Sequence record: PZ674596.1
Length of the DNA: 64,000 nucleotides
Source of the DNA: a phage
Direction: 5' to 3' (one strand)
In this document: positions 58,501 to 64,000 of the stretch, one piece after another
How positions within the stretch are numbered: position 1 is the stretch's first letter
Layout: each line of letters begins with the position of its first letter
Program-made: the position numbers

Positions 58501-61500
58501 ACAAGAAATACACCAAATCGCAGATCGTCGAGATGTATCGGGAGAAGCCACTGGCTGAAATCATTGCGGCTTTGCAGGCAATCGACGACCGAAGAGCAAA
58601 AGACAACCCCACCGAGTCAGTAGAAGAGTAAACACAAGGCGTCCACAGGACGCCTTTTTTATCTCTTGAAAATATATAAGTACTTACTTATTATTTTCGC
58701 ATAACAACCACATAGGAAAACACATGATCAAAATCTATCTATTGGCAGTAGCCACAGGCGTTTCAGTGGCTCTCATCTACGGTTTACTGGTTCCGTCGCT
58801 GATTTCTACCAAGAGTGATTTAGCCGTCATGTTTGGAGTTATCGTTGGTTTTGGTGCTCCTGTAATCGGTCTTATTGCTGGTCGTAAGTTTATCAACTCA
58901 TTAATCAAAGCAAAGGGGAAATAAGTAATGAAGAAAGGTTTACTTGCAGTTGCTCTGGCGGCTATTTGCACAATGGGTCTTACTGGCTGTGATCGCGTGG
59001 AGCCTGGATACGTTGGCATCAAAGTAAACAAATTAGGTGAAGACAAAGGGATCGGTGAAGTGGTTGGCGTTGGTCGCCAATGGACAGGTCTTAACACCGA
59101 ACTTTACGTATTCCCGACCTTCAAACAAATGAAGACCTACGACGAACCGTTCACATTCCAGATGAGTGACGGTACTGCTATTGGTCACAAAATTGGCGTT
59201 GCGTATCTGGTTAATCGTGACAAGGTAACGACGGTGTTCCAGACCTATCGCAAAGGCGTAGACGATATCACCGAATCAGATCTGCGTCAGAAAATTGCCG
59301 ACTCTCTAAACCGTTTGGCCAGCCGTATGACCACTGACTCATTTATCGACGGTGGTAAGGCGCAATTGCTGGACAACGCACTGAAAGATATTCAGAAAGA
59401 GATGTCTCCGGTTGGTATTGAGGTACTGAGCCTGTCATGGGTTGGAAAGCCTGATTACCCAAAAACCGTCATTGAATCTATCAACGCCAAAGTAACGGCT
59501 AACCAGCGTACTCTGCAACGTCAGCAGGAAGTTGAACAACGTAAAGCTGAGGCGAATATGCTACGTGAACAGGCTAATGGTGAAGCTGATGCTATCCGTG
59601 CTCGTGCGCAAGCAGAAGCAGACGCCATTCGTCTGCGCGGTGAAGCTCTGCGTCAAAACCCGAACGTTATGGAACTGGAAGCCATCAATAAATGGAATGG
59701 CCAGTTACCGCAGTACATGACTCAAGGGGCTAACACTCCTTTCATTACAGTGAAATAACTCCCCTAAAAAGTTCAGGCGTCCAGTTGGACGCCTTTTTTA
59801 TCGCAATTATCTTATTAAGAAAATAATTTGTTTAAAAGGATAAGAAAACATGACAGCTATTAAGAAACTCTACGATGCCGCAAACGTGGCTCTGGATGTT
59901 ATTGATGATGAAGCAGCAAAAGGCTTTCCTGAACCTGATTGGGCGCATCAGCTACGAAACGCTATCGCAGAAATGACCCCACCAGATCCAACCCCCGAGG
60001 AGACAGACTGGCAGCGATTCATCCGTATGTACGCTCAGGAAATAGGTCCAACGCCAACGGCAGAGCAGGCAATGCTGCTGAAATACTTCAAAGAGGCGGG
60101 AGAGGATTTACCAATTGATGACTCAGCATATTGGTTCCACTGCGCATGGCGTAAGTATGACGTGATATTCACACAAGGCATGGGAAGCAAAGATATGGTT
60201 GTGTGGCATCTACTCCATATAGACACAGCCGTTGACAGAGTTATTGAACAGTTTTTCCCTAAACAAGAAGATTGATCGCCTATTCATAACTAACAAAATA
60301 AGTAAACACTAACCACAAAAGGAAAAACACATGAGAGTTTTAGTTCGAATCGTTACCACCACTGTCTATGACGTGTTTCCGCTTTTTATGGTCAAAGTCG
60401 ATGGCCTTAACGATGAAGAAACTGACGCGCTGATCCAGCGTACTCTTGTTGAATATACAGGTCATGACGCTGATTCAGTGATGGTTGATGACGATGGTGT
60501 TTGTTGGCATAACGGCAACTGTTGGTACGTAGAAGAGACTCAACAAATCAGTAATGAAGATGCTGAACATCTTGAGCGTATTTTAAGCATCAGCACTTTT
60601 GAGTGAGTTTACAGTAAAGTTTATATAAGTTAGTATCTACCTATCATGAAGATTTTTATTGAATACTTGTTACTCATCGTTTCAATAGCTTTTGTCATCG
60701 ACTGCATTTTCACTGGTGTCATTCGTAAAGTCTTTTCCCCGGTGCACGACGTAGTCATAAACGCTTTGGCTATCGTGCTCGTATTTAATTCAGCATTTGA
60801 TGTAATCAAAGAGGTGGCAGCATGAAGACCATTCCATTCGCGCTGTTGTTTCTTTCTTCGATCGTTGTGGCCGACACCACTGTTTATCAGTGTGAAATGT
60901 CTGTAGCCGACGTTAAGAATGGCGCTCTTACCGACGTCATAAAAGCACCATATGGAGCGATGGTCGTAGACAGCGGCGACCAGTTCTATGTTGTGCGTGA
61001 CGATCGAGTGTTGTCATCCCCATATCTCACAAATCGTAATGGCAAATTAACCGGCGTCGGAGAAGACCACTTCGTATACAACAAATACAAGGGCTTCTAT
61101 GGCGTTCACGCTTCTCAGCAAAGCTACCTTTTCGATGACTGCAAGGAGGTTGGGTAATGGCATTAACACTGGCAGGTCTGGAAATCGAGAAAACAAGCGG
61201 CTACTGGCGTGCTAAGGGTTTCAAGCAGCCTGGCATTCTTGAGCGTCTGGAACGTGAAGATGGGTATATCGTCCACCAGCGGCGTGAATGGCGTATGTAC
61301 GATCCAGAAACAGGAAAACTGACTACAAAAGCCGGAACACTTTGGGGTCTGTTAAAGAAAATACACTAAATGCAAACTGACTGCGGCACGTTCCGCAGTC
61401 ATATTTCATAGTCGTCACCGCTGACAGCATACACAATCAACTACCGCTGATAGCATATCGAGAGTCTATCTCACCGCTCACAGCATACTTTACTCGATTT

Positions 61501-64000
61501 TTTACCGCTGACAGCATACTTAAGAAATTGCATGAATAATGTGTCCCGGTATGGGTATAACCAGAACAAAATTACCGCTGGCAGCATACGAATGTCTGAC
61601 ATATACCATTAATTACCGCTGATAGCATATCCAAACAAAAATTCCTCAATAAAACACCGCTGACAGCATACGTTCTATCAGGGAGTAGCAGGCAATAAAT
61701 GCCTTTCACTACAAGCAATCAGCGCAATAGCAATAGAATGTTAGTGAGCGCAAACCTATATGGAATGCACTCTTCGAGGTTAGTAACCACTGGGGAGGTA
61801 TGACAGAGCATTGAGTGGTGATAGATGATTTACCGCTCACAGCATACGTTCATCTCACTATACCGCTGGTAGCATATCTTTAACCGTTCACAGCATACTT
61901 TTCAGAAAAATAGCCGCTGATAGCATACATTTCACCGCTGACAGCATATCAAAGCAGTTTGAGACTATTGGAAAGGATCTCAATCATCTTGATATTTTCA
62001 GGCGTCAAATTCTGCGAAAGTTCGGTTATCTTGTTGATAATGTTCTGTTTGGCATCAATTTCCCCAGCTTTCTCATCTGGTTTTTTGGGTTCGATGTCTT
62101 CAGGTTTTGGCGGTGCGACTTTGAGTTTTGGATTGCGGCTGTGAATCTGGATATAGATCGACCGCCCACGCTTAATCTCGCTGTATTCGAGATAGCCCAA
62201 ATCTTGGAGAGCTTTTAAGCCGTTACGTATAGTCTGATTCTGCGAGCTGACATTCCTGCTACTCAAATTGAGTCGCGCACGCAATCGAGCAAGCGATACC
62301 GGCGCAGGCTTGGTTGGAAGACTTTCGATGAAGGTGTACAGAGCCTGTGCTGTTTCTTTGCGTGGTAGCTTATTGATAACCTTTAACTGCAAAAGAACCT
62401 TATGGTCAAAGCGATATAGTTCGGCCAGCTTCGGTTCTGCATAGAACACCACCGTATCTTTCTGCTCGTTGTAGTCCACGCTATTGATGAGGTGCACCAT
62501 CAGAAGCGAGATCTTGTTAGAGCCGTCGACGTTCTTTTCTTCATACGTTCTCTGGAAAGACAGAGTTGTACGCATGATCTTCAAAAGACTGTTTGTAAGC
62601 CGGTCGCGGAGTGTTTTGCGGATCTGTGACGATGGATAGCCACAAAACTTAGCAAATTTCGTGATGCTTAACTCGACACGACCGTTAGGTTCGCCGTATT
62701 CTGCCAGCGAACGCACAACGCCCACCCACGTTTTGAAATCATGATCCATGTCGAGACGAGGACCGGTTATCTTGATATCGGAATAGCCTTCAGAACGGGC
62801 TACTTCGAGCTGGACAAGCTCCTTTGAAGCATCGATCTCATTTGGCTTGTTACGTTTACTGTATTTTGTTCCCTTAAGCGTGGGGACGAACAACCCCAGT
62901 CGCATCAACGCAATTGGTTGGACTGTATTGTTGCTATTAGGGACAAGTTCCCCTGTGTACAATTCAAGGGAACCTTCTTCAAAGTTGTCGATGTTATCTT
63001 CTACTTCTTTGTTATTTTTACCTTTTTTATTTTTTGTGGACATGTGGACACCTTTGTCATTCAACCGCTGACAGCATACTTGATTTGCCGCTGACAGAAT
63101 ACCAAAAACAGTTGGCAGCATACGGTGAACCGCTGACAGACTATCAATTACCGCTGACAGCATACATGAACATGACTTCAGACCAGTCGTGGCGCGGGTT
63201 ACAGCGATCGGGGATCTTATTTGATCTATATAAGGATCTATCTATGGATCTCTTTATTAGGATCTATCCTGTGGATATGTGAATAATTAAAACAGGCATT
63301 TACTACCTTCGGCGCACCTGGTGGGTTATCGTTGCCTCGGCTAACAATCACAGAAAAATGACATATGGATCTAAAACGCACGCGCTGGGTTCGTCGTCTT
63401 GAAGACGGCTCCTACACTATCGAATCAAATTCCAACCTGAATAAGCAGAAGTTGCTTTGTGACATCTGCGGTATAGCGGCGAAGTGCCCGATCTACGAAA
63501 CCAGAATTAAACTTGATAAGGCTGGTGTGAATTTTCATTTAAACAGTTGCATCAGGTACGTTCCATTACTCGCATTTCGTAAACCGATCATCGGATTGGA
63601 TGCCCCCTACTTCAACACACTCCGTTCAGGTGTGACGTGGCGAGATCGTTTATCACCAGACAAGCTGATTTGCCTCGTATCCGCAGACACAGGGAAAATC
63701 ATCCGTTTTGGGAAAGTAGACAAGGTTTACTCAGGCCCAGTAGACGAAATGTTGCGGAAACACAGCCGGTTTAATCATCTCTGTATGGGTGGTGAGAAAA
63801 TCGAGAAGGTAGAAGAAGTGATCCGCAAATCCTACGGACACTTTCTGACCAAAGATAGCCTGCTCACCGCAATCTACATCAGACATGTAAAACGTGAGTT
63901 CGACCTCGAATACCACAGCGAAGAAGAGCTTAACCTTGTTGACCCACGTCCAAAAGCTGGCGTCATAAGCATAAACGCAGCGCGTAAAAAGCCCACTGAC

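Follow-up and report, generated by a model that had tools for sequence, protein, structure and literature searches.

A probable plasmid-maintenance replicon of the RepFIB/P1 iteron family in an SSU5-group phage-plasmid

We analyzed 64,000 nucleotides of phage DNA (sequence record PZ674596.1; "the window" refers to this whole stretch) and focused on a region with many short repeats, or iterons, on both sides of a gene for a replication initiator, repA. We are highly confident that an SSU5-group phage-plasmid (the pECOH89/p09EL50 type) uses this region as its replicon for plasmid maintenance, and that the replicon belongs to the RepFIB/P1-oriR family of iteron replicons. The anatomy of the region, its homology to known replicons, and its exclusive location on plasmids can be seen directly. 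A first-pass annotation of the window had described 61381-63290 as having the architecture of the P1 plasmid-prophage origin, and the homology of RepA, a blastn match to P1's oriR, and the annotated map of P1 all agree with that description. We would refine it in two ways: judging from the sequences, RepA is slightly closer to the initiator of IncFIB plasmids than to that of P1, and the replicon appears to be a separate incompatibility type. The interval 61381-63290 encloses all of the parts of the replicon, plus the sequence of a terminator-like hairpin.

The single long open reading frame (ORF) between the two iteron arrays is repA (61949-63043, minus strand), and its 364-amino-acid product is a predicted iteron-binding initiator of the RepFIB/P1 RepA family. 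This protein matches Pfam Rep3_N, the WH1 domain of iteron-binding initiators (E = 3.9e-9; 37.5 bits, with a cutoff of 22.4), and it also matches PHROG 775 (E = 5e-133). A search with hidden Markov models had been suggested as a check on RepA. Because P1 RepA falls in Rep3_N as well, and Rep3_N is an iteron-initiator family, the search does not point to a non-iteron Rep family. In BLASTP comparisons, the window's RepA and P1 RepA share 46% identity across 278 residues (E = 3e-86), and identity to the IncFIB RepA from pCS0010A is 51% across 316 amino acids (E = 3e-110). Homologs of RepA are encoded in at least 5,000 plasmid records. A search of NCBIfam gave no matches for the window's RepA or for P1 RepA, and a sequence search of PDB with RepA gave no matches either.

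RepA ends with a tail (approximately residues 310-364, or 61949-62114 of the window) that comprises a proline/acidic linker and then an amphipathic helix. When we aligned five RepA proteins, the IncFIB and SSU5 proteins had a C-terminal tail of the same form but with a different sequence, and P1 RepA stopped earlier. At the other end of the protein, the RefSeq/PGAP annotation places the start at an ATG inside iteron 17, which gives a protein of 404 amino acids. The extra 40 residues (63044-63163 of the window) are translated iterons (MLSAVIDSLSAV...). The true start is likely the ATG at 63043, which yields the 364-amino-acid protein. This start is backed by the N-terminal alignment of homologs (including the Klebsiella protein), by the annotation of PhiR41_1, and by a Shine-Dalgarno-like sequence (AAAGGTG) that precedes this ATG.

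We searched the entire window for ACCGCTGACAGCATAC, with up to 3 mismatches, and compared the results to shuffled sequences. There were 18 matches, and 17 of these were inside the replicon, all on one strand; shuffled sequences had an average of just 0.40 matches and a maximum of 3. This pattern search reproduces the count in the first-pass annotation, which was 17 copies of a 16-bp iteron, with 12 irregularly spaced copies downstream of repA and another 5 upstream. On the repA strand, the consensus of the iterons is GTATGCTGTCAGCGGT. All 16 of the positions in the repeat carry information, and the repeat is followed by a weak A/T-rich tail.

The 12 iterons downstream of repA span 61417-61949, with spacings of 26/30/31/70/41/41/176/30/21/30/21 bp. 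Seven of them are distal control (incA-like) iterons (copies 1-7; 61417-61671, minus strand). They are oriented like the origin iterons, and they start at 61417, 61443, 61473, 61504, 61574, 61615, and 61656. The proximal control iterons (copies 8-12; 61832-61949, minus strand) start at 61832, 61862, 61883, 61913, and 61934, and copy 12 overlaps the stop codon of repA. In the two largest gaps (70 and 176 bp), the best candidates for relic iterons have 7-8 mismatches, which is the level expected by chance. Upstream of repA, the five origin (incC-like) iterons (copies 13-17; 63064-63165, minus strand) are in helical phase, with spacings of 23/21/21/21 bp, and they end 20 bp ahead of the start of repA. 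Most of the relatives in E. coli have retained all 12 + 5 iterons, with identical spacing of the control array. PhiR41_1, which was deposited as a phage, has just 9 control iterons and is missing the three outermost ones (compared to 61417-61500 of the window). This array is a natural variant and could raise the copy number of the plasmid.

Direct repeats on a phage genome might also be attachment sites (attL and attR) or packaging repeats. The record for Klebsiella phage pJN2-26 does label 20-bp repeats that flank repA as attR and attL (at 2378-2397 and 3648-3667 of its locus). However, those two 20-bp features are two of about 13 copies of the iteron, and the repeats are homologous, in both position and number, to incC and incA of P1. 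Furthermore, the element was never found to be integrated into a chromosome across 5,426 complete genomes of E. coli. We find it barely credible that these repeats are attachment sites or packaging repeats.

Beyond the origin iterons is a G+C-rich spacer (63166-63205, minus strand; 55% G+C), whose core, CCGCGCCACGNCTGG, is also found in P1. The spacer leads to a cluster of six GATC (Dam) sites (63206-63264, no strand assigned), which start at 63206, 63213, 63223, 63235, 63247, and 63261. The first reading of the sequence had reported six GATC sites within 59 bp, and these positions match it. The cluster is 66% A+T, and five of the sites are in the context RAGATC(C/A). Any separate 59-bp stretch of the window has at most 2 GATC sites, and under a Poisson model, the probability of finding six or more is 2.4e-7 per position, or about 0.016 for the whole window. 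The cluster is homologous to the five annotated Dam sites in P1's oriR, and it is presumed to be both the region that opens and the target for methylation and sequestration.

At the outer end of the origin are two tandem DnaA boxes (63270-63286, minus strand) that overlap by one base. The first DnaA box (TGTGGATAT at 63270-63278, or ATATCCACA on the repA strand) matches the consensus at 8 of 9 positions. This is the DnaA-box-like site that the first-pass annotation had described, but it is not a single site. The second DnaA box (TGTGAATAA at 63278-63286, or TTATTCACA on the repA strand), which had been missed, is a perfect 9/9 match. The module of DnaA boxes, GATC sites, and G+C-rich spacer aligns with P1's oriR at 77% over 118 nucleotides (E = 8e-17, blastn). 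It also aligns with SSU5 at 77% over 197 nucleotides, and this alignment runs on into the flank.

The replicon's distribution links it to plasmids. A 2.1-kb region is 99-100% identical in over 120 plasmids from E. coli and Shigella, all non-mobilizable and about 108 kb in size. Among them is p09EL50 from E. coli O104:H4. Near-identical sequences were also deposited as phages (PhiR41_1 and CMS-2020a). When 5,426 complete genomes of E. coli were examined, 119 contained the 1.9-kb replicon, and every one of its 183 places in them is on a plasmid (none are chromosomal). This bears out the earlier suggestion that the element is maintained as a plasmid instead of being integrated. Similarly, SSU5-type phage-plasmids have so far been found extrachromosomally only (PMC9600943). 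The RepA proteins of the window and of p09EL50 are 100% identical. The RepA of pECOH89 is likewise 100% identical to p09EL50's, and it is 48% identical to pLF82's (PMC3999498). Pfeifer et al. placed these elements in the SSU5 supergroup of phage-plasmids (PMC7969092), and Lanza et al. (2014) described pECOH89-like plasmids as "phage-related/RepFIB plasmids" from the Rep_3 family (PMC4270462). The annotation of p09EL50 includes a siphovirus-like structural module, dnaE, a DnaB-like helicase, a toprim protein, nrdAB, and a Dam-like methylase, and it includes no plasmid initiator other than repA. The p09EL50 record is typed as MOB-suite rep_cluster_488, and the records that we checked show one replicon cluster. 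From its name, we presume that this type of replicon corresponds to IncFIB(H89-PhagePlasmid) in PlasmidFinder.

These data also bear on whether the replicon might be a decayed remnant, with the element being maintained by another, unrecognised replicon. A consensus scan did not recognise a promoter for repA, and weak FIB replicons are frequent on multi-replicon plasmids (PMC11983097), as might be expected for a remnant. On the other hand, repA is intact, with 98% conservation or more in over 100 plasmids, and the number and spacing of the iterons are conserved as well. Also, repA is the sole annotated plasmid initiator on p09EL50, and each of the checked records is typed with one replicon cluster. 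We consider a remnant to be very improbable.

How would the replicon work? The mechanism is established in P1 and RepFIB. By homology to these systems, we infer that the window's RepA binds the iterons, that initiation depends on DnaA and Dam, that RepA regulates its own expression, and that the iteron arrays handcuff each other. Monomers of RepA would bind the five phased iterons of the origin (63064-63165), while host DnaA would bind the tandem boxes (63270-63286). Together, RepA and DnaA would open the A+T-rich GATC stretch (63206-63264) and load the host's replisome. The origin would fire only when Dam has fully methylated the GATC cluster, and the hemimethylation that follows would lead to sequestration, so that firing would occur about once per cycle. 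RepA that is bound to the origin iterons would repress its own promoter. The 12 downstream iterons would also bind RepA and would pair, both in cis and in trans, with the iterons of the origin (handcuffing), which would keep the copy number low and set the incompatibility of the plasmid. This role for the downstream array in controlling copy number is suggested by P1's incA and by experiments with RepFIB, whose downstream iterons (E-K) are experimentally the strongest determinant of incompatibility and control (PMC11983097).

Several observations weigh against our identification of a P1-like maintenance replicon, or at least against parts of the mechanism. First, we scanned the repA strand of the origin iterons for a consensus sigma-70 promoter, and none was detected. 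By eye, there is a weak candidate (TTGGTA-18-AAGTAT) between the iterons, in the spacers where P1 has PrepA, and the origin iterons may contain the repA promoter, as they do in P1. This promoter is the weakest link of the proposed mechanism. Second, Pfam's Rep3_C (the WH2 domain) was not detected in the window's RepA, and it is below the cutoff in P1 RepA; still, the alignment spans the full length of P1 RepA, although Pfam detects no WH2. Third, all 12 of the control iterons are direct repeats, as compared to 3 direct and 6 inverted repeats in P1, and a conserved element that is not an iteron interrupts the control array. Copy control may differ in detail from P1. Finally, we found no experiment on this subtype of replicon in the searchable literature, and the case for its replication and control rests on homology. 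As for regulation by RNA, a scan of 61000-64000 against Rfam, with E values up to 1, gave no match and hence no known RNA regulator.

The element that interrupts the control array lies within the 176-bp gap (61739-61794, plus strand) and has two conserved boxes. Box 1 is TGTTAGTGAGCGCAAAC, and in relatives of this replicon it is a 7-2-7 palindrome, GTTAGTGATCACTAAC (GTTAGTGnnCACTAAC-like). Box 2, which is AGGTTAGTAACCACTGGG (GGTTAGTRRYCACTGGG), lies 39 bp past box 1. When we scanned the viral contigs of IMG/VR with a pattern for box 2, 88 loci were returned. Across all of the loci that we collected, box 1 was at a fixed distance from box 2 for 83 of the 92 matches to box 2. Sequence conservation is seen in both boxes but not in the intervening spacer. 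Where repA is on the same locus, the two-box element is within about 400 bp of its 3' end, with one exception. The orientation of the element relative to repA flips between subtypes of RepA.

The two-box element is not tied to one kind of iteron. It is present 3' of repA in both SSU5-type and Klebsiella-type replicons, and the replicons with different iterons that contain it include those of SSU5, a Y. pestis pMT1-like contig, Kluyvera, and Buttiauxella. Plasmids from Rahnella and Pantoea have variant forms of the element, and at one locus from Rahnella, it is close to where direct control iterons give way to inverted ones. The element is absent from P1, and we did not see it in the one IncFIB sequence that we read (pCS0010A). 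We found no further copies elsewhere in the window or on the whole of p09EL50. Because there is a single copy on each, the element is unlikely to be one of a dispersed set of centromere sites or of operators for a master repressor.

The two-box element resembles two sites to which a dimeric DNA-binding protein would bind, and this could be a host protein, a plasmid protein, or RepA itself (as dimers). We considered several other explanations. An RNA hairpin (CTAACCT...AGGTTAG) is unsupported because some of the variants break the pairing with no compensating change, and because the orientation of the element relative to repA flips. Also, the element had no match in Rfam. A coding function is unlikely because the substitutions are contiguous instead of periodic. 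An operator for RepA dimers would fit the SSU5-type iterons, which have ACCACTG in common with the element, but it does not fit the iterons of the window. By eye, we compared the boxes to consensus sequences for dif/cer, Ter/Tus, IHF, LexA, and UvrY/GacA, and none of these was convincing. One tentative idea, which we think is unlikely but worth stating, is that the boxes are a cis-regulatory module, as yet undescribed, of the SSU5-type RepFIB-like replicons, and that this module organises or modulates how the control array and the origin handcuff. If so, plasmid copy number could be coupled to another signal, such as the state of lysogeny or lysis.

Another possibility is that this region is also, or even mainly, a lytic origin. 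Replication would then be driven by the phage-plasmid's own DnaE, DnaB-like helicase, and primase, with RepA and the iterons as just one input, and the two-box element could bind a phage-encoded initiator or a switch protein. In favor of this, the phage-plasmid does encode its own replication enzymes (dnaE, the DnaB-like helicase, and the toprim protein), we know of no lytic origin for the SSU5-type group, and a conserved element that resembles a protein binding site, and is not an iteron, does sit in the array. However, the two-box element is also found in replicons from Rahnella and Pantoea whose visible neighbors are not phage genes, and the architecture of the region is that of the theta-type plasmid origin of thousands of non-phage IncFIB plasmids. 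The lytic origin of P1 is a separate locus, which also counts against this alternative. Overall, we judge a lytic role for the region to be quite improbable, and a replicon for plasmid maintenance remains our explanation for it.

Other features of the window fit with a low-copy plasmid lifestyle. About 31 kb from the replicon is a likely partition locus (29694-30721, plus strand), which encodes a 222-amino-acid ParA-type ATPase and a 119-amino-acid partner. The ATPase matches MipZ, AAA_31, CbiA, and ParA in Pfam, and the partner had no family match in the Pfam search. Next to this locus is a putative plasmid addiction module (28577-29414, minus strand), with a TacA-like antitoxin (Pfam TacA1, E = 8.6e-26) and a GNAT toxin (GNAT acetyltransferase). 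The intergenic region between the two (29415-29693) may hold a centromere or an operator. The ParA locus and the TacA/GNAT pair are what would fit a plasmid that is maintained at low copy.

At the edge of the replicon, a terminator-like hairpin (61378-61401, plus strand) with a 9-bp stem, 6 G-C pairs, and a T-rich tail appears to end the convergent upstream operon. The hairpin comes after the stop codon of an ORF at 61157-61369, and it marks the outer boundary, outside the replicon proper. The ORF itself, which lies beside the control iterons, encodes 70 amino acids (PHROG 804) and is annotated as a "putative Cre-associated protein" in SSU5 and pJN2-26. Its position beside the replicon is kept in all three of the RepA subtypes that we examined.

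Replicons like P1's oriR and RepFIB have been studied for decades, and the SSU5-type phage-plasmids are a known family. Because this is a known type of replicon on a known family of phage-plasmids, the finding is right but ordinary. What this analysis adds is a base-level map of the replicon, which covers its 5 + 12 iterons, GATC cluster, and tandem DnaA boxes and the probable true start of repA, as well as the uncharacterised two-box element. We did not find a comparable base-level map for this type of replicon in the searchable literature. The map also corrects two habits of annotation, which are to place the start of repA inside the iterons (as in PGAP) and to label the iterons as attL and attR (as for pJN2-26). 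The control iterons are a likely place for mutations that alter copy number. Since these elements carry CTX-M-15 and other resistance genes, the control iterons are also an obvious target for curing that is based on incompatibility.

For the comparison to P1, we aligned the window's protein and nucleotide sequences directly to the curated, annotated record. The parts are in the same order and at nearly equal distances, so that the annotated map is matched almost base for base. The origin iterons are spaced at 22/21/21/21 bp in P1 and at 23/21/21/21 bp in the window; the spacer between the iterons and the GATC sites is about 40 bp in P1 and 40 bp in the window; there are 5 GATC sites in 55 bp in P1 and 6 in 59 bp in the window; and the tandem DnaA boxes span 18 bp in P1 and 17 bp in the window. 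The last control iteron abuts the stop codon of repA in P1 and overlaps it in the window. On the map of P1, PrepA is embedded in the five incC iterons, and P1's replicon is also carried by a phage-plasmid. Given these alignments, the resemblance to P1 is best described as true homology, not analogy.

The differences from P1 are mostly in the iterons and in what surrounds the replicon. P1's iteron is the 19-mer GATGTGTGCTGGAGGGAAA, while the window's is GTATGCTGTCAGCGGT, and the TGCTG core alone is in common. P1 has 9 control iterons (3 direct and 6 inverted), as compared to 12 in the window, all direct, and P1's control array does not contain the two-box element. The window's RepA is 78 amino acids longer, mainly because of the C-terminal tail. 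In P1, parA-parB-parS (type Ia) is directly downstream of incA, while the window has no adjacent partition genes; instead, small convergent ORFs, with no assigned function, are downstream of the control array. Also, the window's carrier is from the SSU5 group, which is unrelated to P1. The replicon does not have the P1-like 19-mer iterons of IncY: the consensus is different, RepA is just 46% identical, and the alignment to P1's oriR does not extend to the origin iterons. Because the iterons differ from P1's, we would expect a different specificity of incompatibility, and we do not place the replicon in IncY, although its design is P1-like. We predict that these phage-plasmids are compatible both with P1 and with the classical plasmids of IncFIB.

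The closest RepA is that of RepFIB. This comparison used a single plasmid, pCS0010A, which is typed as IncFIB (known carriers of RepFIB include F, P307, and pO157). The similarity of RepA includes the tail with its linker and helix, and as in the window, the DnaA box, the GATC cluster, and iterons are upstream of repA, with further iterons downstream. Unlike in the window, the iterons of RepFIB are ATAAGCTGTAG-type, its control iterons point in both directions, and it is sited on conjugative multi-replicon plasmids instead of a phage genome.

Among the phage-plasmids, the replicon is found between the same small genes in the type of Salmonella phage SSU5 (SSU5/pHCM2/pLF82) and also in the Klebsiella pKPHS1/pJN2-26 type. 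The Klebsiella type has an iteron sequence in common with the window, and its RepA is 85% identical, but it has just 8-9 control iterons, and its two-box element lies outside of the array. SSU5 is more distant, with a RepA that is 48% identical, a different iteron (AACCACTGTAGAGAG), and control iterons in mixed orientation. SSU5 also has a tandem duplication of the origin upstream of repA (approximately 1760-1990 and 2120-2400 of its locus). Each unit of this duplication has a module of DnaA boxes and GATC sites and then 5-6 iterons, and the copy that is proximal to repA has kept just 3 GATC sites, as compared to 6 in the other.

To put these systems in context, we surveyed 80 loci from Enterobacterales that were anchored by RepA, with no two from the same species. 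Of these, 76 were long enough to be scored. Nearly all of the 76 have a GATC cluster upstream of repA, and most of them combine the cluster with DnaA boxes and with iterons that flank repA on both sides. Control iterons in mixed orientation are also present in many of these relatives. Since the architecture recurs across RepA-anchored loci, the plan of the window's replicon is a trait of the family.

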